Positions 24,703 through 63,673 of a stretch of DNA of 64,000 nt are shown piece after piece. The DNA is taken from the IMG/VR virus record IMGVR_UViG_3300027969_000051. One strand, written 5' to 3'. This stretch comes from an uncultured virus (IMG/VR IMGVR_UViG_3300027969_000051). Its lineage: Duplodnaviria > Heunggongvirae > Uroviricota > Caudoviricetes. The translations under genes were made by a program, and so were the position numbers. The notes beneath the pieces were generated by a model, which saw only the letters and a list, made by a program, of their open reading frames with translations, ran no database searches and was not told where the DNA came from. Numbering within the stretch: the first letter of the stretch is position 1; every line of letters begins with the position of its first letter.

Positions 24703-26493
24703 TTATTCCTCTTCAGATTGATTTTCTTTTTCTCTGTTTTTAGGGATATTAACTAGTTTTCCAATTTCTGGAAGATACAAATACTGCAAATCACTGCGGC
24801 GCAATGTATCTAATGCATCATCAATCGTTTCAACTAGTGGATCTCCACCTAGATTAAAACTAGTATTAAACAGTACAGGAGTACCTGTTGCTTGATCAAA
24901 CGCTTTAATTAGATTGTAGTAGTGTTTATTTTGTTCTTCAGTTACTGTCTGGATGCGGCAAGTGCCATCTACGTGGATAATACTTGGAATTTTTTCAGCA
25001 ACGCCCGGTTGACAGTTCACAGCATACATCATAAATGGGCTGTTGGGCATGCCGCGTAGGTCAAACCACTCGTGGACATTTTCTTCTAGGATAGTACCTG
25101 CGAATGGTCGGAACCACTCACGATGTTTAACTTCGTTGACAATGTCTTTACCATTCTTGATACGTGGATCGAATATGATCGAACGATTACCTAATGCACG
25201 TGGACCGCCTTCTGAGCCACCTTGATACATACACACAATCTTTTCGTCAAGTAGTAACTTGACAATATCGTCGTAGGATGCATCTACTACAGTTTCACCT
25301 TCTTCTGGAAGTACATCTAAATTATATTTTCCGTGCAGTGCATAGTAGTTAGGACCATAGTATATAGTCTTTGGCGTACGGATTGTAGTATCTACATTGT
25401 AGGTATGATGAATGAACTTTGCGGCGCCGATACATGTGCCACCATCATGACTGATTGGTTCTACATATAAGTTCACACCTTCAGGAAGATGCTTTAAGTA
25501 CTCGTAGTTTGCAACGCAGTTTAGGCCAAATCCGCCTGCAATACAAATATTTTTCTGCCCTGTACGTTCGATCGCATCAAGGATTAATCGCATCATTTGT
25601 TGTTCACAAGCTTCTTGTACTGCATACGCAACATCCTTAACTACTTCTAAATTATCAGTGTCAAGATACGGAAATAATTTTCGATCAATGTAAGCACCAT
25701 TAGGGTAGTTAGGTGTAAACAAGTTGCGATTACTCAAATGTCGAGCTTCTTCACCGTGGAATATAAACGGAATCTTATCGTTAGGTTTGCCGTACGGTGC
25801 TAGACCCATTGCTTTTCCTGCTTCAATAAACGGGAATCCACAATAGTTAGTCATTGCTTCGTATACTTTGGTAATACCAGGGTGATCAGTAAAAATTACA
25901 TCATGTAAATCTTCTGGCTTGCCTCGATTATCATGTGGGCAATTAAGTTTTTCATATACAGATGCCGGACCACGAACCCCGATGTGTTTGAATTTAGTTG
26001 CAAAATTACCCGGATAACTGCCGTTAAATATTGTTTCTAATTCCCATCCGGTTGTTTCACCTAATGGGATAAATGTTCCTGCACCGTCTACGATCAATAC
26101 AGCGGCTTCCTTGAATCCACTGTTATAAAATGTGCATGCGGCATGCATTTCGTGATGTATCATACCAAGGTCAATTACTTGACGAGGAATACCAGTTTCT
26201 GGATCTGTATATTTTGCATCGATTAACCCTAGTTTTCGAGCCCATCCGGTGAACATATCATCACCAGTAAAGTCAATGGTACCAGCAGTAGTTAATGGTT
26301 GTGTATGGGCTACTACTAGATAGTCTAACTTATCAGTATATTCTTTAATCTTTAGCATGCCCATTAGAGGGCCGCCATCATATTTTGTGCGACTTAATCG
26401 TTCTTCTTCTATGTAAAAAACAACTTCGCCGTCTTTTAATAAACACGTAGCACCGTTATGGCCACGAGTAATTCCTGCAATCCATTGTGCCAT
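24703..26493 (-). CDS. Carbamoyltransferase, NodU/CmcH family
   Basis: EEERLSR.K, HHEMHA, VDGAG, GKAMGLAPYG, GGFGLNCVAN, GPRALGNRS, KHREWFRPFA, HVDGTCRIQTV, NTSFN. Confidence 0.95.
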   Translation of the reverse strand: MAQWIAGITRGHNGATCLLKDGEVVFYIEEERLSRTKYDGGPLMGMLKIKEYTDKLDYLVVAHTQPLTTAGTIDFTGDDMFTGWARKLGLIDAKYTDPETGIPRQVIDLGMIHHEMHAACTFYNSGFKEAAVLIVDGAGTFIPLGETTGWELETIFNGSYPGNFATKFKHIGVRGPASVYEKLNCPHDNRGKPEDLHDVIFTDHPGITKVYEAMTNYCGFPFIEAGKAMGLAPYGKPNDKIPFIFHGEEARHLSNRNLFTPNYPNGAYIDRKLFPYLDTDNLEVVKDVAYAVQEACEQQMMRLILDAIERTGQKNICIAGGFGLNCVANYEYLKHLPEGVNLYVEPISHDGGTCIGAAKFIHHTYNVDTTIRTPKTIYYGPNYYALHGKYNLDVLPEEGETVVDASYDDIVKLLLDEKIVCMYQGGSEGGPRALGNRSIIFDPRIKNGKDIVNEVKHREWFRPFAGTILEENVHEWFDLRGMPNSPFMMYAVNCQPGVAEKIPSIIHVDGTCRIQTVTEEQNKHYYNLIKAFDQATGTPVLFNTSFNLGGDPLVETIDDALDTLRRSDLQYLYLPEIGKLVNIPKNREKENQSEEE

Positions 26494-41800: not shown

Positions 41801-42675
41801 GATGATGACCAATCACCAGCAAATGATAAACCAGTTGTAAATAACTGCCAGTATGAAGTTGCTGAAACAGGATTTTGATTGATGTTGTTTAAAATTGCGG
41901 TATAGGTATTGCCGCCGTAAGTAACCATGTCGCCAATTTGATAATTTGTAGAATTTGTCCAGCTGTTGGCTGCTTCAAATCCGTTTACAAAGACTGCAAA
42001 ATTAGCAGTGTTAATGGTTACACCAGTACTTGTATGTTGCGTGGTACAAATCCACAGGTCGGGGCCATGTTTTACAACGTCATTTAATTTATATCGTACA
42101 CTACTTCCACTCCATTCTCCTAGGTATGTAATACCTTGATTGAATGTGTCCCACTTGCTTTGGTCGTTTTCAAGACCAGCTGCCGCAGTAGTTGCTGAAA
42201 TATGTGCAGTATTACAGATATAAGTCACGCCGCCATAGTAAATTAGGTCTCGTACTTTATATCGTGTTGTAGTTGCCCATGCACCACTCCAGTTGATATT
42301 AGCGGCAAAGGCATCCCACTTGCTTTGGTCGTTTTCAAGACCTAAATATGTTGGAGATGTATAGGTAGCAGACGTATGTGCAGTTTTACAAATATAAACT
42401 GTGGCGCCCCATTGCACTAAATCACCTACATTGTAATAGGTAGTTGCGGCCCAGATACCAGTCCATTTTGCACCATCAGCAACCAAGTTCCAATTCGTAG
42501 GAATCGCTGATAAGTCAGTTGCAAATCCGCCTGTTGTATTTGTAGAAGTATGGCTCAACACACATATATACGTTTTACCGCTAACAGTAACCACGTCATC
42601 GACTACGTATCCGGTGTTTCCAGCCCATGCACCTTGGTACACGAATTTAATTCTACCTAATTTATATTCTGCCAT
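32857..42675 (-). CDS. Giant modular fibre/structural protein A (3272 aa)
   Basis: Trp-rich W...Y..GD.V.YGG..Y.C...HTS (CBM5/12-like) repeats; VYVA..G.D...PW.T and GDELR beta-helix-type motifs; YGNG.FVA propeller-like repeats. Confidence 0.85.
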   Translation of the reverse strand: MAEYKLGRIKFVYQGAWAGNTGYVVDDVVTVSGKTYICVLSHTSTNTTGGFATDLSAIPTNWNLVADGAKWTGIWAATTYYNVGDLVQWGATVYICKTAHTSATYTSPTYLGLENDQSKWDAFAANINWSGAWATTTRYKVRDLIYYGGVTYICNTAHISATTAAAGLENDQSKWDTFNQGITYLGEWSGSSVRYKLNDVVKHGPDLWICTTQHTSTGVTINTANFAVFVNGFEAANSWTNSTNYQIGDMVTYGGNTYTAILNNINQNPVSATSYWQLFTTGLSFAGDWSSSTAYRIGQVVRLGGYTYVATADNTSSSPPNLTYWQRLNSGLRWNPNNQTFSAVSGTNIVGSGTSATFNVTATKTLYTVTVAAGGTGYAATNTIKILGTSLGGLSPANDLTLTVSSVSGGVIQSGGVTASGISVTWVSGTTYVAGDLVLWAVSTYICVSAHTGGTGNRPDNDTSGTYWNLFSSGTEQAVMTTQGDMFYFAASGPARLPIGTDGQVLRVNNNIPTWQYYGQINNLVYVALSGTDATANGQGTTVDKPWATVRYAAQQIEDGYLNTNAKTALTINKQFLLKETNNYVLNRYSYTITTSTSTTFTAPGGCSTMYVGMPIVFTGTVGGVTAGTTYWVNSVPSSTTFTVTSSQYSGITFGLNSSSGSMTGTFVYSQTKTERDAGYAVDGVIFDLSHGGNFKTYTNAQAYFSAATTLISGVVASDLPPFIASLGYLGTTLMPAVLSNTAPGTNYQALNAPNIVTTGASGTSTVATITFATQASAYAVGSYVTVAGVTPTGYNGTYLVTASTTGSVSYASTTTGSQTVAGTVAATRAIQNTTSVATASIESGTNTTCTNLIAIITNALSALNTGVIPALANPNTTIRVMTGTYNEVLPIVLPAYTAVVGDELRSTTIQPSKAIANLANDKAKSIVAMQRVQSIIPNIIANTSVTVTSTGVNPNTQTQVTSLPIGDVGSSTAVASVTSNTALIQNMIFNGLSQTPAFTLPTVTGYNTTFLAGYGDGKAQIVQNYLFIKSEIANYLINNYSATWTAMGATYQYETLRDVGFILDGLQYDLTYGGNVQSNINGSSYYSLSISQVQAPYAIVFIQALTRLKAIMSNIVTAASVSPSATNAPYTATQVLSGTAGSAGCATAAQGLIQNIINWINNAAGDTTVYPTAAVALTSAQNQNSFNAIASRATEIASDAQVWVQKYYQAYAISTSLTLRDSGYIVQALQYDMVFGSNFNSLSAGRAYNRLNTSALNLLANQNNELNATLDSINFIGNKTRQIAAGGATVQAQTTIDDIVNIINGQATTTLTTATTSTNVLTVTSTAGMAVNMPITFSGLPANTTTTVSGTTTSTNVITLGATVASLGIAAGQQVYFTGVVVGNLVQNQMYYVISPTGSTIQVSLTFGGAAVALVTATPGGTMNAVVNKAGGIWPANIYWINTIPSATTLTITSSFKSGTAYVITNTVGSMTAGVVAGVSNSTGMSSSYQITNGTLAYNGTLTTINAAEILRANTNFIAYEASAYIGANYGGTVTATTVTTASITGYISGTTLTVSSVVSGTVAIGMTLSTITGAADGTYITAGSGSVWTVSVSQTLASSGTPVALTLTNYVVTSGTHKFVVGDPVIFTGTVAGGIALSTPYYVCTVPSTTTFTLSTVQAGYGSQVPAVLTGTTGQSFTVAYYYSVAKCVRDTTSFINALIYDLNFTGNYKSMRATELYLSAVTGSQLKNMFQVRNGCGLRNMTMSGLTGTLTVANTYGTKRPTAGAYSSLDPGFGPNDANSWIYGRSCYTQNCTMFGTGCVGGKVDGSLHAGGYRSMVANDYTTILSDGIGYWVTGNGSLTELVSVFCYFSYSGYLAELGGRIRATNGNSSYGTYGVIAEGTDTFETSLYGNLNNRYFGAQITNTVTDATNQVLRLEFSNAGSGYTNSVTTVSGAGVSPTTLQDEFRDAAVFETRITDPNNTGSSGGTTYVTAANTGQSNAVGAIANGPVGQFVLAATDIALTNAYAGMRVQITAGTGVGQYANILTYTNSTKIAQIYKDSFTNLTVTGSTTTVLQVASTATLYLNMPIYLSATTAGILTANTVYYVKTIPDGVTFTVSSTSGGAAITGLTATSGQTITLYAAGWDHIVPATPIATTTDLTSAYIVEPRISYTAPGFTSTTRAMSNTATWTAATYAAPGFVAVASGGTTASYSTTGKTWTATSVLPASTNWVDVTYGGGQLAKATATVGGLGGTGAVLTAVLGTGSASTQVVRVTVVNGGYGYTTPPTIVFAGGGGAGAAATATVLDGTIQSVTMTITGSGYSSVPTAVAYTGTVTNITVNTWGKDYFSTPTVTFSPPVYATAWVASATATLNAYYSYYNSVTFITNYYQATVGGIMSASAPSHTSGSAANGAATLLYVGTLATVRGASNPGLSNNGVSSYTLTQGGYGYTSTPTITITDSSSAYWAISGNANNSAYITANALAVTLTLTATTQGTPSFVTVASTASLSTNMPFTVATTVGGLTAGTVYFVIQILSATTFTVAATSGGVELTTAITTTSSQSVTLSGAWQAGASTSKTDLKSIAYGNGTYVAVGGTSGTASAVSATSPTTAWIDRSSTITALSAGYYSDVVYGNGYFVAINYGGTITSISSNGVAWSAGGVLPATKNWVGLAYGNGRFVAIATDGTTATCINIDKGSSCTWTATNAGLPSAVTTWSNLRYGQGVFMAIATGTTVCATSPDGLDWTSRALQASSNWLALTFGNPATTTLGPTPIWVAISNTSGTTANSIRTGATPLGRVKVVGASVTEIRMAEPGSGYAKGNVTSITTTSSGTLLVDDTTNLSTSTNTQPVEFSVSAGNITTNTTYYVIGSSVVANTSFQVSATSGSATPVALTAATPTSMIYTVGPVVTITDPNKTIAVLTRVRTGFGALANPSFSNRGTGNSTATSSTIGDGYSDLYQNSQYINVSNLFAMPQPGANLQFGTVYTGVPWTASTVVRAGIQLIATNTITSGGVTTYYYNVYTVTATGTTGTSAPTSTAISVSDGTATLTYVGQNPNVWYKLVAITNQLGIAGAYTAQFQINPALTTNNAPAHNIQITTRLKYSQVRLTGHDYLYIGSGNQTQTNYPYVTTANSIQANQQLATAGGRVFFTATDQDGNFNVGNLFGVQQATGTATLNASAFNLAGLQSLTLGAVTLGIGSATITQFSTDPYFTANSDNILPTQKAIKSFITAQIGGGSSTLNVNTLTAGQIFIANNSISNTTGGQIYVSGKMNFTGGIDGAPVALVFFAQR

Positions 42676-42721: not shown

Positions 42722-45700
42722 TTAAACCGATCCTCTATTAACTACACCACGCATAAAGAAGTCTAGCGCCGCCATATTTCCATCAACTCCTGCAAATGCC
42801 GCGCCGGATATATATACCTTGCTAGTCATGTTTACTACGGACCCGGACGTACCTTGGGGAACTGAGCTAGTTATCTTGTTAGCACCCCCAACAATCACGG
42901 TACCCGCAATCAATTGCCCTGTAAACGTGTTTGCGCCGCCCTGACTTAACCGACTAGTTAGGTATGTTTTAATTGCTTTCTGTGTTGGTAAAATTGTATC
43001 GCTATTTGCTACAAATGTCCCGTCTGTACTAAACTGTGTAATAATTGTACTTGACCCGCCGACAGCAATACCACCTAGACTAATACTGTTTAATCCAGAT
43101 AGAGCGAACTGGCTTGCACTCAATGTAACAATACCAGTTGCCTGTTGTACTCCGAACAAATTACCAACTTTAAAGTTACCGTCTTGGTCTGTACTAGAAT
43201 AAAATACGCGGCCATAATTAACTTCAACTGTTTGATTATTAGGTGTTGACGCATACCCTGCATCTGGGAACCCTGGGTAATTACTTGTTTCAAAGTCACC
43301 GTATCCGATATTTAAGAAGTCATGATTTGTTAAACGGCATTGACTATACAGCGAACGAATACTAACTGTAGTACCATCTACCGGGCTTAATGCTGTCGTC
43401 ATCGCTGGCGAAATTGATATGTTTGCCTGTAATGTCGGAGCTACGCTGCCATAAACTGCTACTGCACTGGTTACTTTATACACTTGATCGATACCAGTTA
43501 TTATCAAGTTATCTCCTACACTCGGTGCCTTAGATAAATTATTCATGATTAATGTTAGGCCTGTTTGATACGAATTTGAATATCCGTTACCTGTGGTAAT
43601 CACGGCTGTAGAGGTTGTATTATACCCAACGCCTCTGTTTACAAAAGTTGGGCTAGCTAGCGCATTATTCGATCTACGAACTTGTGTAACAACTGGCACT
43701 GAGAAATTTGGATCAATAATTGTTAATGTTGGATCAGAGGTATAACCAGACCCAGGTTCAAACTCAGTAATAGATGTAATAGTGTTTGATATAATATTTG
43801 CTCTTGCTCGTGTTCGGATACCTGCACTAATATAACTACCGTTGTTTGTTCCACCGAGTAATATCCATCGGCCGACGCCACTGCTATTAACGCCAAACGC
43901 CATAGTTCCCCAGGTGGTGTTTGAGATAGATTGTTGTGCCCATTCTAATCCGCTATCGCTAGTCCATGCTACTCCTGATGTATTTCCGATGGCTACAAAT
44001 ACTCCTTGACCGTAGCGAATTTGATCTGCGGTGAAAGAAAGATTTGATTGGTACCAGTTAATTCCGTCCTGAGTATATGATGCCTTAGACGACGAGCTTG
44101 ATACTGCTACAAAACTATTATTACCATAGTCAATACTCGACCATGTGGTTTGGTTAGGTGTTGAGCTTACGTTCCAGGTAGTTGCATTTGTACTATAAGC
44201 AACTACTGAGTTGCCTATAATTGTGCCAAATACACTACCGGCTGCGGTTGTTGCGTTAACATATTGTACTGTTGTAGTATTACATCCAGTCACTTTATAA
44301 GTTCCGTTATACCCCGATGGAGTCATACCTGAAACCACAATAGTTTGTCCAATAATAAACGGTGCTGTGCCTAGTACACTAAATGTTAATGTAGCAGTTC
44401 CTGCTGATCCACTAGCCGCTGTTGGGATTACTGTCGATCCGCCTGATGAGATTGCTATAAACAATCCTGCGCCGTAGGTTAATCCGGTCCATGCTAATGC
44501 CGCAGGCAACGTGCTAGTTGACCATGATGAACCAAATGTAGTACTATATGCAACCTTAGTTGTTCCTGTTGCTATTGCTACGAAAATTCCGTTACCATAA
44601 GTAAGCTGTGACCAAGATGAATCGCTTGGCATTGCCACTGATTTCCAGCTTTGCCCATTAGAATTTGAGTATACTGCAATGCAACTGGTTCCTCTAGTAA
44701 CTGCAACAAAGTATCCTGCGCCGTATTCTACTGCTCCCCACGCTGTAGGATTTACTGCTAATGTTAGTTGGGCCCAATTCGCTCCGTCTGTTGATGAAGC
44801 GACTGTTGACCCTGCATTGGCAAAGGCTAGCCATGTTCCATTACCGTATGCTGAGTAACTATAGCTGTTTGATGGTGCTAGTAATATAGTCGAGCCAGAG
44901 CTTGTCTGTGTAAAGGTCGGAGCACTGTAGATTAATCTTGGTTCTACAAAATATACGCTGGTCGAGTCTAGAGTATCAACTGCTGGTGTTCCTGCAACCA
45001 CATGATCCCACCCGGTTGCACCGACATTCATAGAACCTGTAGCAGATGATAGGGGAACCGTAGCTACCCCTACATTTGCTAGAGAGCTTGCAACTGTAAA
45101 GTTACTTGATGAGAATGTATTAATATAATAATTTGTACCCTGAACTACTCCCCCAAATAACGGAGTTGAGAATGTAGCGGTCATTGCTCCTTGCCCGAGA
45201 CTCAATTTAGTCTTAGTCGCAGTACTGGTGCCAACCATTGTACCGCTGGTGATAGTGACTGTTGTGTTTACGGTTCCAGTATTTGCCACAGTTACCGGCA
45301 CAGTGGTTGAGGCTGCAACATAACTTACATCTACTTTCGCTCCTACGCCAATGTTAGTACCAGTTACACTCATACCGGCTACAATACCAACTCCACTACT
45401 TACTGTAATAGTAGTCCCTGTTGATACTCCAGTTGCTGTCGGAGTGACTGTTATGTAGGCTCCAGTTAACGTGACTGGCAATGGGCAGGTAGTTGCACCA
45501 AACAAGCACGATGTTACGTTGCTTAATTGTAATGCTGTTCCACCAACTTGTGTACTAATGTTAAATGATGTGCTGTCGTTAACTGCTAGGATATAATATG
45601 TGAAATCCGGTTGTATATTTCCGGCAGTTGACCCAGTAAATCTAATCGGTTGATTAGGAACAAATCCTACTGTTGATGTACAGTTTATCAAACTTCCTAT

Positions 45701-48700
45701 GTATTCTGTTGATGTAACATTTACTCGTATAACATTTGCAGATATTTTAAATGTTGTACTACTGCCGCTTGGAATACTGCTAATATAATATTTTGTACCG
45801 ACAGTAATGCCTGGATCTCCACTATAGGTATTGAATATAATTGGGTTCGTTGGGATCAATGATGCATTTGATGCCACAGTAAGCACGTTAGTACCTGATA
45901 CAGTTCTAGTAACTGTTACATTTACAAGACTGCCTGAGATCATAAAGTTAGTGGCGTTAACAACATCATTTACATAATATGTTATACCAGTATTAATTCC
46001 GCCAAAAGTACTACCGGTAAACTGTATTGGAAAGTTTGCAACCATGTTGGTTGTAGATCCTGTCAAATAACTATTATTAGAAGTAAAGTTAGCAATCATT
46101 GCCCCAGATGCAGTGGTCACCCCCCAGGCTGCGGCGCCAGATTGGAATGGCGCTGTTCCTAGTTGGATCGTTGTTTCATTAATAATTGCTGTTACATAAT
46201 ATGTAAATCCTGCAATTACAGTAGTAAATAGTGTTCCACTAAAAGTTACTGGCATATTAACAAACATAGCCGCGGTTGATGCCACTGTTAATGTGTTAGT
46301 AGTTCCGCCAGTTGATGCAGTAACCGTAACTTGGTTTAATGACGTTGCACTAACCACTGCAGAATAATATGTTGGTAAAAACTGAACTGGCATTCCTGTA
46401 TAGAATGCAAGAGTGCTTGCTGCCGGTGCAATAACAAATGTATTTGCCGGACTAGTGGTAGCAGTTATACCTAATGCAGTGAATGATTCTTTTAATACTG
46501 TTGCTGTTTTACTTGTTGTATCAAAGGAACTAATGTATCCATACTGTCCTGCACCGGTGCCGCTATTGATAAACACCCGCAATGTAAGATAGTTACTTGC
46601 AGTGTTAACATCTGACTGTGCAAACTGTATACTATCAGTATCGCCTGTCTGTGCATTGTTTGATGCGGTGAAGTATCCACTACCACCGACTACTCCGGTT
46701 GAGTCTCCGATAACCCGTGTCTGGAATACCGAGCCGCTACGAATTTCGTCACCTACAGTAATCGCACCGGTGCCTGCACCAGTTATATTAAAGTTTGCGT
46801 ACGATGTATACCTATTGTTTAAAGTTTGATAGTAAAAGCTCGGTGAGAGCGGTGTTGCGAATGTGCTATTGCCAATTTCTGCCTGTGCTCCGTAGATCAC
46901 ACTATATGTTCCACTCGCTCCGGTATATCCTCGTGGGTATATCCTAAATTGAACTTGGGTCATCAATCCGGTTGGGTCATACGTAGAGAACCACAATCTT
47001 ACCCAACCCTGTGAAGTTCCAATTTGTGCTTTGTAACTTGTGGGAGTTACGCCCGCACCAGAGCTGTTAGGAGTAACGACCCCTGTAGCAAATGTATAGG
47101 TTACACCGCTGGTTGCAGTAGTTGACCCGCTAAAAATTGCTTGTATATCTAGTTGTGCCGCAGTACCTTGATTTATATATACACTGAATGTATATGGCAA
47201 CGCACTACCTGCCGGTACATCGCCCGATGCAGGGTTGTCTGGTGCTACTTGTGTAACTACTTGATTGACTGCACTACCTGTTACCTGAGAAATATATAGT
47301 ATACAGTCGTTGATTCCTGATAGTCCACCTAATAGTGCTCCGGGAATTAAAATTAGGCCGCCTTGAACATATCCATCCCCTGGACTGTTAACTGTTGCTA
47401 CAAATGTTGTAGCAGTTACGGTAACGTCAAACGTTGCTCCAACTCCACTACCTGTTAGGTTATTACCAGACAGATTAGTATATGTTCCACCTGCTTTAGG
47501 TATTGCAATATTTTGATAGATGTAGCTGTCGCCGGCATTATTTGAAGTTGTGCCGTACACAGTCCATGCTTCAACTAATCCCGTTGGGGCTGTTGATATT
47601 TGTTGAACAGTAACGTTGCCATCTGTGGTCCATGATCCGGTATTAAATCCATTACTGTAATTTAAAAGATTAGTAGTTGTCGAATTGTATGCTTCTCCTG
47701 CGTTGGTATATAATAGTTTAAGTAATTTTCCAACACTACCAAAACTACTTGCAACTGTTGCTTGCACTTGTGTTGATTTATTGTAAATATATCCGGTTGT
47801 TGGAACTTCTGTAATATCATACCCTTCAGATATTGCACCGTAATTACCGTATGAACTATTACCATTGGCTGCTCGAATGCGGCCACCGCCTTCTGCAAAG
47901 TATCCAGTATACCCATAGTATGAGAACACACTAATACATTCAGTAAGCGCACCTGGGCCTGTACACCACACCCCGATACCGTCACTGACAATGTGTGTAA
48001 AGTCATTTGCTACTATAGATTTATTGCCGCCAGCATGTAGATTACCGTCAATCTTAAGAGCAGTACATCCGTTACCAAATGCTGTTACGTTCTGTATATA
48101 CGGACTACGACGGAAAATCCAAGCAGTTGTATCATTTATGCCAGTGCCTGGATCTAGCCCAACATACACTCCGCCAGTTGGTCGTTGGATTTCATATGCA
48201 TCTTGTGCGCCAAGTGTACCAAGTAAACCTGCTAGCGTTGCATTTCGCAATCCAGATCCATTTCGCATATAGAACATGCTCTTAACAGCGTCGCCACCGT
48301 AGACTAACATTGCTGTGTTTGCCGCCACAGATCCTGTAGCACTTGTAATAATAACTGGAGGTCCTGAACAAACAAACGGCACCGCGGAGAATGAAGCTGT
48401 TGCGTTGTTACTAATTGTTATTGTTGCAGAATTTGAGTTAACACTAAGAATCGTTGTGTTATCAGGAATTCCTAAGCCAGTAATAAATCCCCCAGCAACC
48501 AGGCCAGTTGTTGATGATAGCGCAGATACTGTTCCGCTACCGGATGTAATGTTACCTGTTATAGAAATACTAGGCACTGTACTTGCTGAAAATGTTGTCG
48601 GGGTTATTGATGCGCCGATTACATAATAAGTTGTTCCAGCGGTAACACCGCCAAGTGGCACAAATGTTACGTTTGCATTAATGATTGGTGCCGCAAATTG

Positions 48701-51700
48701 TATTGGGCAGTTATCGTACATGCCTGTAGTTCTGTAAACTGTGAAATAGTAACTGCCAAGTGATGCAGTTGTTGATGTACATACAGTGTTGATAGATACT
48801 GCTGGTTGAATTGTAACTCCTCGTAATTCTTCGCCGATGATTGCAGTATTCTCAGGAACAGAGATTGGTAATATTTCTGAGTATATTCCACTTTTAACAT
48901 TAATAGTTGTTGATATACCCGAGTTCGCTGACGGTATTAGTGCTTTACTTTTTGCAGTCAATGCCGAAGTAATGATAGACATCAAACTTGTAATTTGTGT
49001 GCTCGTACCCGCTTCAACAACGATTGCTGGATAAAACAACTGTGCAATCTGTAATGATGGAGCAACAGTATTGTTACTTTGATTCGTTGGGCTCAATACT
49101 GCTCCAGGTAATACATAAGTGGTAATCAACCCTAACAAATAATTTAATGCCGCGATGAAAAATGGCATCTCAGCAGTTACGGCTGCATTAGTGAATGTAG
49201 TTGAGCTTTCAATTGCAAAATACGCCAGTGCTGCCGCAACAGTTTGACTGTTACCGCCTCGAGTTATATCATATACGATTGCATCAATAACATAGCCTGC
49301 ATCTCTAATAGTTTTAGTTTGATCAAACACTGAGCTTGCCGAAAACGGCGCCGTGTTACTTGCTTTTTGTGAAAGCATCCAGTAATACATTTCTGTTGTT
49401 GCAAATTGTTTATTCTGATTTATAATGTAGGCGGCATTTTGATATAATGCGCCGGCCTTGGCTACTGAACACGCATAGGCAATAGTCTTCCAAGGCTTGT
49501 CCCAATCTAACCCCGGGTTAGAGTCGCTGCCTATAGAACTCGACACGTAGTACACCTTGCTTATTTGATGTAATTTTGCCCAGTTGGGGGTATTACTAGT
49601 ATTTCTTAAAACACTACTTGGTAATCCAATGTTAATGTCCGCATATGCATTGTTATTGTATGTTTCTAAATCCCCGATGGCATTCATAGCATTTTTTCTA
49701 GCGTGTGCAGATTCTAAAGTCCAGTAAGTTCCAGATGTATCTAAATCAGGGCGATTAGCAGGAAGAGCAGTATGTGTTTGAACACAAACATACGTGCCAT
49801 TTTGCCAAACAACTAAATCGCTTTGGACATATTTTTTTCCAACAGCAGTACCGGTTGATGATATTGCTGTTATGTTTCTGCCGTAACCGATAGCAGTGAT
49901 TGTAATGGTCAAGTCATTAATGCCATCAGTACCACCTAATGTTGACCCTAAAATCTTAACAGTATCATTGACTGTGTAATTTGATCCGCCTGCAACTAAT
50001 GTAACACTATACACAGGGCCGATAGCTGTTATATTATATGTCGATCCTGAACCCGATGAAGCAAAGTTAACAGGTGAAATATTTGAATACGAAGCAAGAG
50101 TAGTCCAGAACGAGTTCCAACTTTCTCCTGGAACTAGTAGCTTCCAATAGACCTGATTAATACTAGTGAAACTTAAATTTTGACCGTTGGTTAGAGTTCC
50201 GTCAGGTGGGTAGTTTAATATTAGGCTAGTGCCTGCGGCATTAGTTGAAGTAACTGCTTGACCTAATGTAAATCCGGCACCTTGAACAATCATACCAGGT
50301 AAAACTGTTACCCCGTAGGTTAACTGATAGCCGCCAGCAATAGTTGCTGGTGTGCCGCTTGAAGCAACTGTTTGACTAACACTGATTGTGTACGTGCCAG
50401 CAAGTCCTGCTGTAAAAAAATTAATTGTAGTTGTATTTAACGGGGCAGAAGTTGCTACACTTGCGCCTGCAAGATTTACTAATGGTATGCTTGTGCCGCC
50501 GTTTATGTATGTTGATCCTACATAAGTACCGACAGGAATTCCTGAAGCAACAATCCACTGCCCGGCAGTAATATTGGTAGCACTTGCTACAGTGACTATA
50601 CTAGCTCCACTCGATGCTGTGGCTGTAGTTGTTGCGGTGGCGCCGTTCGTTGCAGTTAATTGTGATGTTATATATGTGTTATCTGAGAATGTTCCGTTAG
50701 CAATACCGTATATTAAATATGCGGCATTTGGTAATATTGGATCACTTCCACCGCCAGTAACAGTTAGCGTTGTTCCTGAAGAATATCCGCTGAATGTTAT
50801 CTGTGGGCTGGTTATAGTTACAGGATTGCTAAGGGTAATACTGCTCACACCCACAGAAGCAACGGTAGTTCCAATAGGAATACCAGGACCGGTAATTGGG
50901 GAGCCTAGCGGAATTGATGCGTACCCTCCGGCTAATCCAATAAAGTTCGGGTTGCCTGGCCCAATTCCGGTGATAGTAGTTCCTGAGGCAACAAGTGATG
51001 CAAGGAAAGTACCGCCTACTTTTAGTGTAGTTCCGGAACTACCTGTAGAATTATAGTTCATTGCTACACTATAATCAGATGGATCTTGAGGAGCTAGGTT
51101 ACTGAATTGTAAGTCTGTCGAATTGTTGTCAACAAATGCTTCAAATAAATTACCTTTTCGTCTAACAACACTACCCACTTTATAGGGTTGATTGCTAGCC
51201 CACTCATCGCGCAATTCAAAACCTTGTACTAGTAAAGTCCATGCTGATGTAGCTGTTGACGGAATATTCCCTATGTTATTTGCCGTGATCGAAATGTAAT
51301 TAAATCCGCCATATAATACTGTATCGCCGACTTGGAATGTTATAGTACTGCTCCAGGTGCCGGCCATGTCCGACCCTTGCAGATACATGGTAAAACTGGT
51401 AGCGGCAAATACAGTACCTGAGGTATGCGGGGTTGTGCAGATGTATATATCTGGGTTTAATTTTACAAGATCGTTAAATTTATACCGAACATTGGCCGGG
51501 CTCCAGGCTCCTTTATATTCAACACCTTGGAATAAAATAGTCCATTTACCTAAGTCTGGTTCGAGTCCTATCCCTACATTGGCTGCGCTGGTATGGTTTG
51601 AATTACAAATATATACCATGCCGCCGTATTTTACAACATCGCCTATGCCATACACTGTGGCCGGTAACCATGTTGGTTTCCACGCATCAAATTTTAAATA

Positions 51701-52036
51701 TACTGACCAATTTGCTTCGTCAATAGTAGTTAATCCGGAAGTGTGCGATACTGCACATATATATAACTGTCCGCCAAATTTAACAATGTCTTTAACATTA
51801 TATAATGTACTGGCCTGCCAAGCATTTCTCCAAGTCTTTCCGTCAAGTACTAACTGCCAATAATTAGTTGGAGTCTGCGCAAGGTCTGCCGCAAATCCAG
51901 ATGAAGTATGTGGTACTAAACACACAAATGTACGTCCGCCAAAACTGACTACTGCGTCCTTATTATAAAAAGTAGCAGTGGTCCAGGCTCCGAACCATGT
52001 GTATCGTAATCGACTAAGTTTAAATTCTGCTGTCAT
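42722..52036 (-). CDS. Giant modular fibre/structural protein B (3104 aa), paralog of A
   Basis: Same architecture and ends as A (AEFKLSRLRY vs AEYKLGRIKF; RLT.HD.L.IG; TDQDGNF.VGNLFGVQQATG; PTQKAIK). Confidence 0.85.
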   Translation of the reverse strand: MTAEFKLSRLRYTWFGAWTTATFYNKDAVVSFGGRTFVCLVPHTSSGFAADLAQTPTNYWQLVLDGKTWRNAWQASTLYNVKDIVKFGGQLYICAVSHTSGLTTIDEANWSVYLKFDAWKPTWLPATVYGIGDVVKYGGMVYICNSNHTSAANVGIGLEPDLGKWTILFQGVEYKGAWSPANVRYKFNDLVKLNPDIYICTTPHTSGTVFAATSFTMYLQGSDMAGTWSSTITFQVGDTVLYGGFNYISITANNIGNIPSTATSAWTLLVQGFELRDEWASNQPYKVGSVVRRKGNLFEAFVDNNSTDLQFSNLAPQDPSDYSVAMNYNSTGSSGTTLKVGGTFLASLVASGTTITGIGPGNPNFIGLAGGYASIPLGSPITGPGIPIGTTVASVGVSSITLSNPVTITSPQITFSGYSSGTTLTVTGGGSDPILPNAAYLIYGIANGTFSDNTYITSQLTATNGATATTTATASSGASIVTVASATNITAGQWIVASGIPVGTYVGSTYINGGTSIPLVNLAGASVATSAPLNTTTINFFTAGLAGTYTISVSQTVASSGTPATIAGGYQLTYGVTVLPGMIVQGAGFTLGQAVTSTNAAGTSLILNYPPDGTLTNGQNLSFTSINQVYWKLLVPGESWNSFWTTLASYSNISPVNFASSGSGSTYNITAIGPVYSVTLVAGGSNYTVNDTVKILGSTLGGTDGINDLTITITAIGYGRNITAISSTGTAVGKKYVQSDLVVWQNGTYVCVQTHTALPANRPDLDTSGTYWTLESAHARKNAMNAIGDLETYNNNAYADINIGLPSSVLRNTSNTPNWAKLHQISKVYYVSSSIGSDSNPGLDWDKPWKTIAYACSVAKAGALYQNAAYIINQNKQFATTEMYYWMLSQKASNTAPFSASSVFDQTKTIRDAGYVIDAIVYDITRGGNSQTVAAALAYFAIESSTTFTNAAVTAEMPFFIAALNYLLGLITTYVLPGAVLSPTNQSNNTVAPSLQIAQLFYPAIVVEAGTSTQITSLMSIITSALTAKSKALIPSANSGISTTINVKSGIYSEILPISVPENTAIIGEELRGVTIQPAVSINTVCTSTTASLGSYYFTVYRTTGMYDNCPIQFAAPIINANVTFVPLGGVTAGTTYYVIGASITPTTFSASTVPSISITGNITSGSGTVSALSSTTGLVAGGFITGLGIPDNTTILSVNSNSATITISNNATASFSAVPFVCSGPPVIITSATGSVAANTAMLVYGGDAVKSMFYMRNGSGLRNATLAGLLGTLGAQDAYEIQRPTGGVYVGLDPGTGINDTTAWIFRRSPYIQNVTAFGNGCTALKIDGNLHAGGNKSIVANDFTHIVSDGIGVWCTGPGALTECISVFSYYGYTGYFAEGGGRIRAANGNSSYGNYGAISEGYDITEVPTTGYIYNKSTQVQATVASSFGSVGKLLKLLYTNAGEAYNSTTTNLLNYSNGFNTGSWTTDGNVTVQQISTAPTGLVEAWTVYGTTSNNAGDSYIYQNIAIPKAGGTYTNLSGNNLTGSGVGATFDVTVTATTFVATVNSPGDGYVQGGLILIPGALLGGLSGINDCILYISQVTGSAVNQVVTQVAPDNPASGDVPAGSALPYTFSVYINQGTAAQLDIQAIFSGSTTATSGVTYTFATGVVTPNSSGAGVTPTSYKAQIGTSQGWVRLWFSTYDPTGLMTQVQFRIYPRGYTGASGTYSVIYGAQAEIGNSTFATPLSPSFYYQTLNNRYTSYANFNITGAGTGAITVGDEIRSGSVFQTRVIGDSTGVVGGSGYFTASNNAQTGDTDSIQFAQSDVNTASNYLTLRVFINSGTGAGQYGYISSFDTTSKTATVLKESFTALGITATTSPANTFVIAPAASTLAFYTGMPVQFLPTYYSAVVSATSLNQVTVTASTGGTTNTLTVASTAAMFVNMPVTFSGTLFTTVIAGFTYYVTAIINETTIQLGTAPFQSGAAAWGVTTASGAMIANFTSNNSYLTGSTTNMVANFPIQFTGSTFGGINTGITYYVNDVVNATNFMISGSLVNVTVTRTVSGTNVLTVASNASLIPTNPIIFNTYSGDPGITVGTKYYISSIPSGSSTTFKISANVIRVNVTSTEYIGSLINCTSTVGFVPNQPIRFTGSTAGNIQPDFTYYILAVNDSTSFNISTQVGGTALQLSNVTSCLFGATTCPLPVTLTGAYITVTPTATGVSTGTTITVSSGVGIVAGMSVTGTNIGVGAKVDVSYVAASTTVPVTVANTGTVNTTVTITSGTMVGTSTATKTKLSLGQGAMTATFSTPLFGGVVQGTNYYINTFSSSNFTVASSLANVGVATVPLSSATGSMNVGATGWDHVVAGTPAVDTLDSTSVYFVEPRLIYSAPTFTQTSSGSTILLAPSNSYSYSAYGNGTWLAFANAGSTVASSTDGANWAQLTLAVNPTAWGAVEYGAGYFVAVTRGTSCIAVYSNSNGQSWKSVAMPSDSSWSQLTYGNGIFVAIATGTTKVAYSTTFGSSWSTSTLPAALAWTGLTYGAGLFIAISSGGSTVIPTAASGSAGTATLTFSVLGTAPFIIGQTIVVSGMTPSGYNGTYKVTGCNTTTVQYVNATTAAGSVFGTIIGNSVVAYSTNATTWNVSSTPNQTTWSSIDYGNNSFVAVSSSSSKASYTQDGINWYQSNLSFTADQIRYGQGVFVAIGNTSGVAWTSDSGLEWAQQSISNTTWGTMAFGVNSSGVGRWILLGGTNNGSYISAGIRTRARANIISNTITSITEFEPGSGYTSDPTLTIIDPNFSVPVVTQVRRSNNALASPTFVNRGVGYNTTSTAVITTGNGYSNSYQTGLTLIMNNLSKAPSVGDNLIITGIDQVYKVTSAVAVYGSVAPTLQANISISPAMTTALSPVDGTTVSIRSLYSQCRLTNHDFLNIGYGDFETSNYPGFPDAGYASTPNNQTVEVNYGRVFYSSTDQDGNFKVGNLFGVQQATGIVTLSASQFALSGLNSISLGGIAVGGSSTIITQFSTDGTFVANSDTILPTQKAIKTYLTSRLSQGGANTFTGQLIAGTVIVGGANKITSSVPQGTSGSVVNMTSKVYISGAAFAGVDGNMAALDFFMRGVVNRGSV

Positions 52037-59877: not shown

Positions 59878-60906
59878 TTAAGCGTTTTCTACTAGTAATG
59901 AATCACCCAATACTGCGGCATTCATATTCCATTTAACTGCGGCGCCGGTTGCAAATGCTGTACCTGTACCACGAGTTACTGTAGCCTTACGTGCTGTGAT
60001 CTTAGTAGCAAAATAATTTCCGCCAACAGAATCAGTAAACTTGATACTGCCTTCACCTGCGGCTGTTGCCACTGATGATTTTAGTTTAACAATACCTGTA
60101 CGTGTACCGTCTGTTACTTTGAAACGATTTGTTGAAACTTGTTTGATAACGTCGACTGTAGTTGCAGAACCACCAGTTAAGTATGCTGTCATGATGATTG
60201 CATTTTCTTGATTTGTAGTTGATCCAACGTTACCAGTACTTACAGTCAATGCCGCTGTTACTGTTAATGTACCTTGTGTACCTGTTGACAATGTAACGGC
60301 CGGTGCTGTTGTGTAACCAGAACCTTTTTCAGTAATTGTAATGCCAGTAATTGTACCTGCTGCCGCTACTGCACCAACAACTGTAAGCACAATATCGTTT
60401 GTTGATGTAACACCACCAATTAGTGCACCGTCAATGGTAATTGTGTTACCAACAGCGTATCCAGTACCTTTTGTAGTTGCTGTGATAACTGTTAGTACAC
60501 CACCAGTAGCATAGTTAGTACCTGTTGTAGCTTTGGTAATTGTGAATACTGCACCAGTACCTGAACCGTTTGTTGCTTTTTGTACTAGACCAGTATATGT
60601 ACCTGTTGCGGCTGAGCCAGTACCAGTTGCTGTAAATGTTGATCTATCAGTACCAGATGTTCCTGCGGCTGCTGTTAAAAATGCACCTGCTGGGCCTACT
60701 ACTAAACTACCTACTGCACGTACACCAGTTGGTATAGTTGGAGTTGCAATGCTAATTTGTGTTAATCCAGCTGTATAGCTTGCTGAGTTGTTTGCGGCAC
60801 CTAATGCAATGCTTGCAATGCCTTCACCGCCGATTTTATCATCGGTAGTGCCTGTGGTACCGACGTTTCGGTTACCAAAATATTTCTTACTTAGAGGACG
60901 TCCCAT
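59878..60906 (-). CDS. Thr/Gly-rich structural protein (possible capsid or tail decoration)
   Basis: MGRPLSKKYFG N-terminus, GSGYTTAP.V motif, IKQVS..RFKV; strong AAGGAG SD. Confidence 0.75.
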   Translation of the reverse strand: MGRPLSKKYFGNRNVGTTGTTDDKIGGEGIASIALGAANNSASYTAGLTQISIATPTIPTGVRAVGSLVVGPAGAFLTAAAGTSGTDRSTFTATGTGSAATGTYTGLVQKATNGSGTGAVFTITKATTGTNYATGGVLTVITATTKGTGYAVGNTITIDGALIGGVTSTNDIVLTVVGAVAAAGTITGITITEKGSGYTTAPAVTLSTGTQGTLTVTAALTVSTGNVGSTTNQENAIIMTAYLTGGSATTVDVIKQVSTNRFKVTDGTRTGIVKLKSSVATAAGEGSIKFTDSVGGNYFATKITARKATVTRGTGTAFATGAAVKWNMNAAVLGDSLLVENA

Positions 60907-60919
60907 TTTATTTTCTCCT

Positions 60920-60989
60920 TATGAAAACACAGCGTTCTAGGCTGTACGCGGTTAGATTTCCGCATAAAACTCACCCTATGTGAGTCATA
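60920..60989 (-). ncRNA. Candidate four-way-junction 5' leader RNA (unassigned)
   Basis: UAUGA/UCAUA closing stem around hairpins CUCAC/GUGAG, UAUGCGG/CCGCGUA and CAGC/GCUG; fills the gap between promoter and SD. Confidence 0.6.
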
Positions 60990-60994
60990 CATTG

Positions 60995-61000
60995 TATTTA
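60995..61000 (-). promoter_or_regulatory. Late promoter core TAAATA
   Basis: Overlaps the TAA stop of the upstream gene. Confidence 0.65.
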
Positions 61001-61891
61001 TGCGTAAGTGATTCTTAAGGCAACTTGACTAAGATATGCTAAATCTCTGTGCGGATAGGTGGCATTACTTTGAAAACTGACCACGACTCCAAACGTAGGA
61101 TCAGCTACATCTGAAGCTGTGAGTGCTGTACCCCATAGATCTGCAGGACCTCCGTAAATACTAAAATCACCGACTGGGTCTTGAGGGGTGGTGAAATCTC
61201 CGGTATTCATATCAGTTTGCACAGGATTTATAGTGCTAGCAAGATTGTTACTGTTAGCAATTTCTACGCCGTTTAGTACTAATTTAATTTTTAAATCTTG
61301 TATTCTACCGGCACGTTGTACGTTAAGAGCTAGTTCTATTCCGGCTACTTGAGTTAGCCCAGGGACTTGAATACTGTACCCTGTTATTGCTATCTGCACT
61401 TTGATTTGTAATACTGTGTCGGCTAGAAATGCTGGTTTAACTACATTATTCCACCAACTACGAAGATTCGTACTGCCCTCAGATAATAAGAACCATTGTC
61501 GAGCATCGGCAGCAGTGATGGTTCCGGAGTTGTTGATATCTCCGTATCTAAATCCGCTAACTGGATCTATTGTTCTTAAGAAATTGTATAGTAATGCACT
61601 ACTATATCCTTGCGAAATAGGTATAATTTGCTCAGAAATAAAGAACAACAGTTGAGATTCAGTGTATGAGCTATTGTATCCAGTACAGTATAATTCACTA
61701 GTTGTACTTAAAAACTTTTCCATCCATAATCCGCTGATAGTGTACAGTGGTTTACTGCTGATTGCACAGTTATTTTCTGTAATAATATTTTGTGTTGTGA
61801 TCCAATCGATACTAGGATATCCTGTAACTTCGTTAGGAATGTTTACATTAGTTAAAATTGTTGGATTTAAAAAAGGTGTAGTGGTGGTCAT
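60998..61891 (-). CDS. Hypothetical structural protein with dockerin/EF-hand-like insert; paralog of the adjacent gene
   Basis: LYTI.GLWMEK, AGIEL, YG.P.DLWG..LT..DV, QVALRITYA shared; insert contains GDINNSGTITAAD. Confidence 0.75.
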   Translation of the reverse strand: MTTTTPFLNPTILTNVNIPNEVTGYPSIDWITTQNIITENNCAISSKPLYTISGLWMEKFLSTTSELYCTGYNSSYTESQLLFFISEQIIPISQGYSSALLYNFLRTIDPVSGFRYGDINNSGTITAADARQWFLLSEGSTNLRSWWNNVVKPAFLADTVLQIKVQIAITGYSIQVPGLTQVAGIELALNVQRAGRIQDLKIKLVLNGVEIANSNNLASTINPVQTDMNTGDFTTPQDPVGDFSIYGGPADLWGTALTASDVADPTFGVVVSFQSNATYPHRDLAYLSQVALRITYA

Positions 61892-61892
61892 A

Positions 61893-62432
61893 TTATGCGT
61901 AAGTGATTCTTAAGGCAACTTGGTTCAAATATAACAGGTCTCTGTGGGGATATATCTGATTGCTTCTATATGCTAATGCAATACCAAAGCTATCTTGGGC
62001 AACATCGGCGGGTGTCAGTGTAGTGCCCCACAAATCCGAAGGACTACCATATATATGAAAATCGTCAACTGGATTTATAGTGCTGGCTTTGTTTTCACCT
62101 ATAAGAACTCTATCACCTAAGGTTAGTTGTATTAGTAAGTCTTCAATGAGGGCCGCACGTTGTACATTAACTCTTAACTCTATACCTGCAATTGGTCTGC
62201 TAACTAGGGGGAATCGAAATTGTGTGCAATACAAGTGTTCCGTTGTGCTGAAATACTTTTCCATCCATAATCCATTGATTGTATATAACGGAGTTATGGT
62301 TGATGTATGGTTGTCTGTAGTGCCGGCAAGATAGGTATCTTTCCATTCGATTGGTGCTTGCCCGGAATCTGGATTAAGAGAGTTTATTGTAGAAAATATA
62401 GTAGGATTATAAAAATCAGTAGTAGTGGTCAT
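61893..62432 (-). CDS. Hypothetical structural protein; start corrected to MTTTTDF
   Basis: The ORF-track start falls inside the terminator; TAAATA is 4 nt before ATG 62432; N-terminus matches the paralog. Confidence 0.75.
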   Translation of the reverse strand: MTTTTDFYNPTIFSTINSLNPDSGQAPIEWKDTYLAGTTDNHTSTITPLYTINGLWMEKYFSTTEHLYCTQFRFPLVSRPIAGIELRVNVQRAALIEDLLIQLTLGDRVLIGENKASTINPVDDFHIYGSPSDLWGTTLTPADVAQDSFGIALAYRSNQIYPHRDLLYLNQVALRITYA

Positions 62433-62436
62433 ACTA

Positions 62437-62442
62437 TATTTA
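62437..62442 (-). promoter_or_regulatory. Late promoter core TAAATA (leaderless type)
   Basis: TAAATA-tagt-ATG. Confidence 0.65.
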
Positions 62443-62452
62443 CACAAAAGAG

Positions 62453-62474
62453 AAAGGGCTCCGAAGAGCCCTTT
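62453..62474 (-). terminator. Intrinsic terminator after major capsid gene, CUUCGG loop
   Basis: AAAGGGCTC-TTCG-GAGCCCTTT followed by ctctttt. Confidence 0.88.
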
Positions 62475-62500
62475 ATCATATATCAACTTCTAAGGTTTGA

Positions 62501-63673
62501 TTAGCTAAACTTAACGTTACCGCTAGTAATAGCAACTAGACCTAAGTAGTCAGCCGCATTACCTAATGAAGATGCTGTGTTTGACAACTCAACATATCCA
62601 TAACGTGTCATGAAGCTTACGACTGGTTCGAATGTTGATGGATCTAACACAACACCGCTTGACATTAAAGGAATGTATGGGCAGTAGAATGCTGGAGCAT
62701 CTGATTCGCTTGAACCTTTGTATCCGATTAGCACTGAAGCTGAATCAGAAGCATAGCTGTTTACATAAACTTTCATTGCGCTGTTCAATGTACCAACAAA
62801 CTTAGTGTTTGTAGGAGCTTCGAAAGTGCCTTCAGTTGTACGAGCAAAAGCTGATGTTGTTGCAGATTGTAGAATTGTTAGCGTAAATGGGCTAACAACT
62901 GCGTAGTTACCTGCACCACGACGTGTACGTTGTGCAATCAAGTTGCTTACACGATTGATTTGAACTGCCAATGCGGCATGTTCGTCACCAACAAATGTAG
63001 CTGTACCTGACACAGCGGACTGGTCATAAGTTTGTGTAGCTGTACCAGCTAATGATGTTAGAGATGCAATGATCTCTTGATCGATTTCAGCTGTAATTTC
63101 TTGAGCCAATGCAGCCATAACTTCTGCTTCAACGTCAATACCTTGTTGGGCTTGTGCGTCTTGAGCAGCCTCGAATGTCCAACGTGCAGACAATTTACGA
63201 GTTTTAGCTTCGACTGTTTGTTTCAAGATTTGAATTGACATACGGTTACCAGCTTGACCTTCTAGGGTAGCTGTTGAAGCTGCCTTAGCGGTTGCACTTT
63301 GGTTTCCTGAGTATGCCTCAGCAATCTTGAACGGGCTTAGTGCCTCTTCACCAGCTAATACGCCTGAGTTAGCTGAAGTATCAGCATAACGTACACGTAA
63401 AGTGTGAATTTGGCCAACTGGGCCAGTCATTGGTTGTACACCAACTAGTTCATTAGCAATGACTGTTGGCATAACGCGACGGATCACTGGAAGGATCACG
63501 CGATTTAAAGTTGCAACGTTACCAGCAGAAGTAGCACCAGTAGTTGGACTTTCTAACAAATACTTGCGAGTATTTTCTAGAGTCACGCCCATTACTGATT
63601 TTTTAGTGCCTTGTAAGCCTTCTAATAGGGCTTCCTTAGTTTCTGCCCAACGTCCGTTTAGTAGTTCTGACAT
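62501..63673 (-). CDS. gp23: Major capsid protein, gp23-like
   Basis: IRRVMP..IA.ELVGVQPMTGPVGQI, VEAKTRKL.ARWT.E.AQD, EIDQEI, FYCPYIPL, MTRYG. Confidence 0.96.
   Translation of the reverse strand: MSELLNGRWAETKEALLEGLQGTKKSVMGVTLENTRKYLLESPTTGATSAGNVATLNRVILPVIRRVMPTVIANELVGVQPMTGPVGQIHTLRVRYADTSANSGVLAGEEALSPFKIAEAYSGNQSATAKAASTATLEGQAGNRMSIQILKQTVEAKTRKLSARWTFEAAQDAQAQQGIDVEAEVMAALAQEITAEIDQEIIASLTSLAGTATQTYDQSAVSGTATFVGDEHAALAVQINRVSNLIAQRTRRGAGNYAVVSPFTLTILQSATTSAFARTTEGTFEAPTNTKFVGTLNSAMKVYVNSYASDSASVLIGYKGSSESDAPAFYCPYIPLMSSGVVLDPSTFEPVVSFMTRYGYVELSNTASSLGNAADYLGLVAITSGNVKFS

Follow-up and report, generated by a model that had tools for sequence, protein, structure and literature searches.

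What is the RNA encoded in the 91-nt intergenic gap that separates, on the minus strand, a 297-aa ORF (60998-61891) from a 342-aa ORF (59878-60906) in the DNA of an uncultured virus, and what might it do to the gene behind it? The whole stretch of DNA analysed, subsequently designated the window, comprises 64,000 nucleotides. A sequence-only reading had drawn the gap as a compact four-way junction, in which three hairpins are enclosed by a closing stem next to the Shine-Dalgarno (SD) sequence and the second and third loops may kiss, and had proposed a cis-regulatory function for it. Direct reading of the window confirmed the letters of the element, which match the earlier quotation exactly, as well as the helices and the minus-strand layout. 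From 5' to 3' the parts are CATAAATA, UAUGA, hairpins P1, P2 and P3, a U-rich linker containing UCAUA, AAGGAG and AUG. The features are as follows:

60995..61002, minus strand: late-promoter-like box CATAAATA, overlapping the stop codon TAA (61000-60998) that ends the 297-aa ORF upstream
60989-60985, minus strand: UAUGA, the 5' arm of the closing stem drawn earlier
60969..60985, minus strand: hairpin P1, ACUCAC-AUAGG-GUGAGU, from the Rfam alignment and covariation, pair probability 0.82-0.99
60945..60966, minus strand: hairpin P2, UAUGCGG-AAAUCUAA-CCGCGUA, upper case in the Rfam consensus, with the loop word UCUA here
60930..60944, minus strand: hairpin P3, CAGC-CUAGAAC-GCUG, from covariation, its loop upper case in the Rfam consensus
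60909..60929, minus strand: linker, SD sequence and A-rich spacer, from the minimum-energy fold
60924-60920, minus strand: UCAUA, the 3' arm of the closing stem drawn earlier, within the linker
60920-60915, minus strand: SD sequence AAGGAG
60901..60906, minus strand: start codon AUG (60906-60904) and Gly codon GGA, the proposed partner of loop 2
59878..60906, minus strand: downstream gene of 342 aa, MGRPLSKKYFGNRN..., a member of the MGRP family of putative virion proteins
62501-63673: gene of the Gp23 major capsid protein, Pfam E 1e-97

A search of the whole window with Rfam cmscan returned a single match above the gathering cut-off, namely the freshwater-2 RNA (RF02980, type Cis-reg), at 60904-60985 on the minus strand. 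The match scored 74.7 bits as compared to a gathering cut-off of 49.9, covered model positions 1-84 of 84 and had an E-value of 1.4e-9 for the window. Save one chance match to a lncRNA, none of the remaining Rfam families reached E <= 1 in the window. The consensus of RF02980 comprises three tandem hairpins, an unpaired linker, an SD sequence and an AUG, while a closing stem is absent and loop 2 is weakly conserved. In the consensus alignment, the window element carries the conserved UUAUGCGG...CCGCGUA and CUAGAAC of the family, followed by SD and AUG. The element is a full-length, ordinary member of an already catalogued Rfam family and is not new, and the earlier remark that it matches no recognised riboswitch gave way to this assignment. 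Structurally there is no difference between freshwater-2 and the window copy, which departs from the family norm merely by the rare loop 2 word UCUA and by the U-rich linker of its subfamily, foldable over the SD sequence. A cis-regulatory placement fits, as the RF02980 model itself spans AAGGAG and AUG.

The family is described as being of aquatic, mainly freshwater metagenomic origin. We take it to stem from the comparative screen by Weinberg et al. 2017, which reported 224 motifs. The word 'freshwater' is absent from the main text of that paper (PMC5737381). In the literature searched, no function, partner or experiment was found for freshwater-2 or RF02980. The DNA runs with the largest share of the stretch carry the label freshwater metagenome or plain metagenome; that of three RNA runs is lake water metagenome.

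The view that the leader is not a tRNA held, since ARAGORN detected 0 tRNA genes in the window. The leader does resemble a tRNA in its length of ~70 nt, in having three hairpins around which a closing stem can be drawn, and in the 7-nt loop on the third arm. However, its arms of 6, 7 and 4 bp and its loops misfit, and the closing stem is not conserved. A tRNA or tRNA-like cloverleaf was excluded by the ARAGORN result and by closing-stem pairing at chance level in 108 copies among the matches listed.

The window represents the structural module of a T4-related myophage. In addition to Gp23, it encodes a tail sheath protein, a gp15-like sheath stabiliser and the large terminase (Pfam/PHROG). Among cultured phages, the closest capsid proteins are those of giant phages, i.e. 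Sinorhizobium phage Phosso (71% identity), Vibrio phage 2.275.O (70%) and Eneladusvirus and Mimasvirus (67%). The source is an uncultured giant T4-like myophage from fresh water. The structural module also contains two giant consecutive ORFs on the minus strand, at 32857-42675 (3,272 aa) and 42722-52036 (3,104 aa). Between the capsid gene and the leader lie two adjacent paralogous minus-strand ORFs, at 60998-61891 (297 aa) and 61893-62486 (197 aa), which share an N-terminal stretch and a C-terminal ...YPHRDL.YL.QVALRITYA and have no Pfam or PHROG match. A Nol-like carbamoyltransferase gene is present at 24703-26493 on the minus strand (PHROG E 1e-169; Pfam Carbam_trans_N and Carbam_trans_C).

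Relatives of the element were collected from IMG/VR using a fixed-word pattern comprising P2 and the P3 loop, which yielded at least 120 loci with one copy each and 108 unique elements. In a second scan, the 5' arm of P2 was left free and second codons not beginning with GG were sought, yielding 77 loci. Both copy sets were chosen by fixed-sequence patterns, which in part presuppose the invariance of P2 and loop 3. When the 13 closest copies among the matches listed were used to build a covariance model, this model detected exactly one match in the window and one in each of the 99 loci supplied. RF02980 likewise occurs once per long phage contig in 5/5 contigs (104-260 kb, CheckV completeness 29-74%); in three of these five the match stays below the RF02980 cut-off (45.6-49.4 bits), these being shorter relatives without P1. 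In none of five related cultured giant phages did RF02980 exceed its cut-off, the best score being 22.6 bits. Among 50,697 records, tblastn with the 342-aa protein detected no cultured-phage match, and blastn with the leader retrieved only chance matches of 21-25 nt. In DNA run X1, which was inspected over window positions 60891-60983, contig depth amounts to 250-440 over the leader as compared to ~17 in the flanks, and many short variant contigs occur. The conserved core is therefore common to many different phages in one sample.

Which gene does the leader precede? An MGRP start follows in 117/120 copies, and 71 of 72 complete downstream ORFs are 109-460 aa long (both among the matches listed). 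At one locus (L120) the downstream ORF is a 7-aa stub, MGRPITD*, which may indicate a broken gene. When 33 short homologues were combined into a profile, it matched residues 1-25 and 226-336 of the window protein (E 6.7e-19), i.e. the protein consists of the family core plus an insert of ~200 aa in which T, G, A and S abound. No Pfam family scored above cut-off for the window protein and 40 homologues, and three weak PHROG matches in the same set fall on inserts. The AlphaFold model of a 133-aa member is all-beta (pLDDT 75.9). Foldseek retrieved no PDB match at E <= 0.001 for this 133-aa core, and the best hits of a VIA-wide search (Z 4.8) were Tudor/SH3-like small barrels, too weak to name a fold. 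In BFVD, the model matches uncharacterised proteins of Atu_ph07 and of uncultured phages.

The MGRP profile also detected homologues in cultured phages: one in Phosso (E 4e-23), two in Atu_ph07 (E 1.7e-15 and 4.4e-11) and a weak one in fHe-Yen9-04. The Phosso gene and both Atu_ph07 genes possess the MGRP start and a late box, and their leaders are 27-35 nt long and devoid of hairpins; therefore, the gene does not need the leader. Since the MGRP start persists without the leader in cultured phages, its conservation is that of the protein, and it is the aquatic lineage that has added the leader. As a separate observation, upstream of the 470-aa MGRP homologue of Atu_ph07 (L223) the sequence before the late box resembles the 3' part of a tRNA, ...GGTTCGAGTCC...CCA. 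The two Atu_ph07 homologues compute to 52.32 and 35.15 kDa. For Atu_ph07, the virion ESI-MS/MS table S5 gives gp466 with 52,32 kDa, 21 peptides and 62.8% coverage, and gp498 with 35,16 kDa, 23 peptides and 75.5% coverage (PMC6102473). Molecular weight was used for the assignment because gp numbers do not follow the CDS order of Atu_ph07 (at the capsid gene the two are offset by 30); as control, the capsid protein of 43.51 kDa was recovered as gp215 in the same table (PMC6102473). Matched by molecular weight only, the Atu_ph07 homologues correspond to the abundant virion proteins gp466 and gp498 of that table.

To which message does the leader belong? T4 late promoters have the consensus TATAAATA, and transcripts start ~6 nt downstream of it. 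The box CATAAATA upstream of the leader (61002-60995) fits this consensus at 7/8 positions. Ten other genes in the window have the same box 6-33 nt before their ATG, and 10/13 minus-strand gaps longer than 25 nt contain it. The gene behind the leader is the exception in the window, with a box-ATG distance of 89 nt. Among the matches listed, a TAAATA box is located 11-42 nt upstream of the conserved core in 120/121 copies, the commonest forms being GATAAATA (49), CATAAATA (25) and GCTAAATA (14), and P1 starts 4-10 nt past the box in 62/92 copies. From the box, the transcript start is predicted at about 60988-60990. RNA-library contigs of two studies cover 60739-60970 and 60820-60970 with zero differences from the window, while the DNA contig continues. 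These contigs show neither start nor strand and may contain DNA, and none lies over 60971-62539; they provide at most a weak hint of transcription. An assembly break may explain why both stop at 60970, given the DNA-run depth of 250-440 over the leader versus ~17 beside it.

Next to be considered is the structure of the leader itself. In an alignment of 100 relatives fitted to the covariance model, with P2 and the P3 loop fixed by the search pattern, all 6 pairs of P1 vary on both sides and 95.3% of the cells are paired (relatives among the matches listed). In P3, all 4 pairs vary on both sides as well, the three inner pairs being 98.7% and the outer pair 84.8% paired in the same 100 relatives among the matches listed. 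The covariation score was 0.389 as compared to 0.084 for shuffles (0/500 reached it), and sliding the partners by 1-3 columns left at most 0.035. The P2 stem is invariant in the pattern-selected set, in which its G.U pairs are kept in 100/100 relatives among the matches listed. The P2 variants encountered in the second scan, a bulged base and a U.G to C-G replacement, are both compatible with the helix. Judged by this comparison, the three inner hairpins are genuine and go beyond chance. The check on covariation in relatives that had been suggested earlier thus came out in favour of P1 and P3, and against the closing stem and the UCUA/UAGA pair, which are addressed below.

P1 is missing in 16/108 unique copies among the matches listed (including L002, L008, L010, L017, L027, L035, L042, L055, L076, L085 and L119). 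In at least 8 of these 16, the leader has UCUAG(A) instead, located between the box and UUAUGCGG. This word is complementary to the invariant CUAGA of the P3 loop (5-6 bp) and is also a repeat of CUAGA. It could form a pseudoknot between the 5' strand and loop 3, or could represent a second copy of a recognition word.

The closing stem UAUGA/UCAUA is present in the letters of the window, but failed in the comparison with relatives. Across the 108 unique copies among the matches listed, the duplex energy of leader and linker averages -1.91 kcal/mol versus -2.03 (sd 0.11) for swapped partners, and 30/108 copies can form at least 5 contiguous leader-linker pairs versus 35.2 (sd 3.9) after swapping. 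For this test P1 was trimmed to its inner 5 bp, and a stricter version gave the same answer. With -2.8 kcal/mol, the leader-linker duplex of the window ranks 33 of 108 among the matches listed. Within the 13-sequence subfamily 75% of the closing-stem cells pair, which speaks for the stem; its middle pair, however, is broken in 8/11 rows that have letters there.

Energy calculations point in the same direction. A stretch of 111 nt has a folding energy of -27 kcal/mol (z = -2.3), which is matched by 5/200 shuffles. The four-way junction has -20.1 kcal/mol, as compared to -18.4 for the three hairpins alone, i.e. the closing stem adds 1.7, and to -25.1 for the minimum-energy fold. In the latter, a weak hairpin UGUUUUC/GAAAAUA places the SD sequence in its loop. 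This hairpin competes with the closing stem and is more stable; it is subfamily-specific, as it requires the U-rich linker, which is absent from short-linker subfamilies in the alignment. The closing stem has a pair probability of 0.12-0.18, which drops to 0.001 when 40 nt of upstream sequence are included. In the window, the closing stem is a minor conformer. On the basis of the swapped-partner tests, the Rfam consensus and the energies, the four-way junction was rejected, while its three inner hairpins stand.

The kiss between loops 2 and 3 fared similarly. The complementarity of UCUA and UAGA exists in the window copy, where the loop 2-loop 3 duplex has a computed energy of -2.5 kcal/mol. 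As a feature of the family it did not hold: UCUA occurs in loop 2 of 2/121 copies among the matches listed, these being the window and L001, whereas AAAUCCAA is found in 12 copies among the matches listed, including the nearest relatives of the window, which thus have UCCA. At least 4 contiguous pairs between loop 2 and CUAGAAC are possible in 12/108 copies among the matches listed, 2 of them with UCUA and 10 with UUUA through a G.U pair. The kiss was rejected as a family feature, UCUA being rare and few copies being able to pair. In addition, P2 and P3 abut without a linker, so a kiss of their loops would be sterically awkward. Although both pairings exist in the window copy, we regard a translational operator built as a four-way junction closed next to the SD sequence and locked by the kiss as very unlikely.

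If not loop 3, what does loop 2 pair with? Loop 2 is nearly always CC(C)R across copies among the matches listed. The 132 unique copies among the matches listed fall into two start classes, AUGGG (102) and AUGGC (30), and all true family members among the 77 loci of the second scan have AUGGC starts. We compared the base at +5 with the class of the loop word, which is C-type for CC(C)R and G-type for GCCA, GUCA, GCUA and AGCA:

+5 = G, 102 copies among the matches listed: C-type loop 96, G-type 1, other 5
+5 = C, 30 copies among the matches listed: C-type loop 4, G-type 26, other 0

The association of loop class with the +5 base has a Fisher p of 9e-22, a value that ignores the relatedness of the copies and therefore overstates their independence. 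Loop and start switched about 4-5 times independently, and the switch is seen within at least 4 protein subfamilies. When the +5 base was swapped, the longest helix favoured the native over the swapped base in 84 versus 0 AUGGG copies and in 26 versus 3 AUGGC copies (among the matches listed). In the 24 elements of the subfamily to which the window copy belongs, AAAUCCAA/AUGGGA gives way either to AACAGCAA or AAAAGCAA/AUGGCU, which amounts to two compensatory changes, or to A(A/G)GUCAA/AUGGCA. Exceptions exist: a C-type loop is kept in 4/30 AUGGC copies (L179, L146, L154 and L205), of which L179 belongs to the window subfamily, and 6/102 AUGGG copies among the matches listed are not C-type. 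As it is the start region that agrees with the +5 covariation, pairing of loop 2 with the SD sequence was not retained.

The helix between loop 2 and the start region comprises 3-4 bp. In the window its computed energy is -1.1 kcal/mol as compared to -3.1 for AAAUCCAA, and it is also weaker than the loop 2-loop 3 duplex (-2.5 kcal/mol). The C-to-U change in loop 2 of the window keeps the start contact only through G.U wobbles. By comparison with its relatives, UCUA in the window appears better read as a weakened complement of the start codon than as a partner of UAGA.

In three copies (L106, L146 and L154) the leader precedes an unrelated gene, MAHTRKLHYK... or MANTRKIHYK.... The SD sequence is weakened to AAGGAA in L106 and L146, and loop 2 is unadjusted to AUGGCA in all three. 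These cases look like gene replacements behind a retained leader.

We propose that the leader is probably a late-gene translational operator, in which loop 2 would mask the start codon by forming a pseudoknot. The idea of a cis-regulatory leader before a structural gene was thus supported, with translational control as its likeliest role, as suggested by the Rfam type Cis-reg, by the loop 2-start covariation and by the virion-protein homologues identified by molecular weight. Transcription would most likely start a few bases past CATAAATA, placing P1 at the 5' end of the message. Three tandem hairpins would follow, with P1 and P3 keeping their pairing, and with the P2 stem and the P3 loop CUAGAAC fixed in sequence. 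The CC(C)R word of loop 2, here UCUA, would pair with U-G-G-G/A across the start codon and the codon after it, an interaction supported by the covariation seen in the comparison across copies. The resulting pseudoknot would leave the SD sequence in the connecting loop and mask the start codon, and translation of the virion protein may thereby be held back or timed. In the window, the predicted contact of loop 2 with the start would be at its weakest, as it is kept only through G.U pairs. Among the copies, AAGGAG is found in 79/108 unique ones, and the SD sequence is located 6-8 nt before the AUG in 102/108 (both among the matches listed).

The invariant P2 stem and P3 loop may constitute a recognition surface for a constant partner, most likely a protein that stabilises or opens the pseudoknot, the gene's own product being one possibility. 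The more specific version, according to which the pseudoknot of loop 2 with U-G-G-N is locked or released by a candidate partner, possibly the MGRP protein, that reads P2 and CUAGAAC, is put forward tentatively, and we hold it to be possible rather than probable. The E. coli rpsO (S15) operator and the T4 gene 32 leader are autoregulatory mRNA pseudoknots at the start site, which are held by protein so that initiation is blocked. In these systems, too, a hairpin loop pairs at or next to the start codon, and the gene 32 leader likewise comes from a T4-type phage. The likeness is one of architecture: unlike in rpsO and gene 32, the helix comprises only 3-4 bp here, and any feedback by the present leader would be putative.

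Other functions have to be weighed against a start-masking operator. The leader might be a constitutive stabiliser or enhancer, whose hairpin stack protects the late message from decay that depends on the 5' end, or presents the SD sequence, without any switch. The position of P1 at or near the predicted 5' end (4-10 nt past the box in 62/92 copies among the matches listed) would suit this role, as would the strong SD sequence, which lies outside the conserved helices, and the abundance in virions of homologues of the protein, as matched by molecular weight to the table consulted. However, protection alone leaves the fixed sequence of P2 and loop 3 and the loop 2-start covariation unexplained, and P1 is dispensable in 16/108 copies among the matches listed, which renders such a role rather unlikely. 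Still less do we favour a riboswitch, in which hairpins and pseudoknot would form a pocket for a small molecule and the ligand would set the masking by loop 2. The SAM-II, preQ1 and fluoride riboswitches use a short pseudoknot over the ribosome-binding region, and the leader would share this trait with them; the Rfam type Cis-reg and the strong sequence conservation of P2 and loop 3 are also in line with this idea. Yet the conserved letters reside not in junctions but in a hairpin loop and a regular helix; the gene under control encodes a virion protein, which has no link to metabolism; each phage genome has one copy; and the RNA is not known to bind any candidate ligand.

Finally, the element might act at the level of DNA, for instance by binding a factor for late transcription or packaging, and not as RNA. 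Its location directly downstream of a promoter-like box and its fixed sequence blocks would be compatible with this. However, the compensatory changes in P1, in P3 and between loop 2 and the start preserve pairing and not sequence, and the G.U pairs of P2, which work on just one of the two strands, are kept in 100/100 copies among the matches listed. Hence, we give hardly any credence to a DNA signal, and a translational operator that masks the start codon remains the reading we prefer.

What does this mean for the family? The finding in the window itself matters little, as Rfam has listed the RNA ever since the motif screen of 2017. The family, on the other hand, has been made testable: the leader probably forms the 5' end of a late message of the T4 type, the gene behind it belongs to a family with abundant virion-protein members in Atu_ph07 (as judged by molecular weight), and loop 2 covaries with the start and second codons. 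This covariation is the most useful result, pointing to control of translation initiation. If the proposed mechanism is true, giant aquatic phages would adjust by feedback how much of one abundant virion protein is made, and part of the conserved 'MG/MA' start of this protein would be dictated by RNA pairing.
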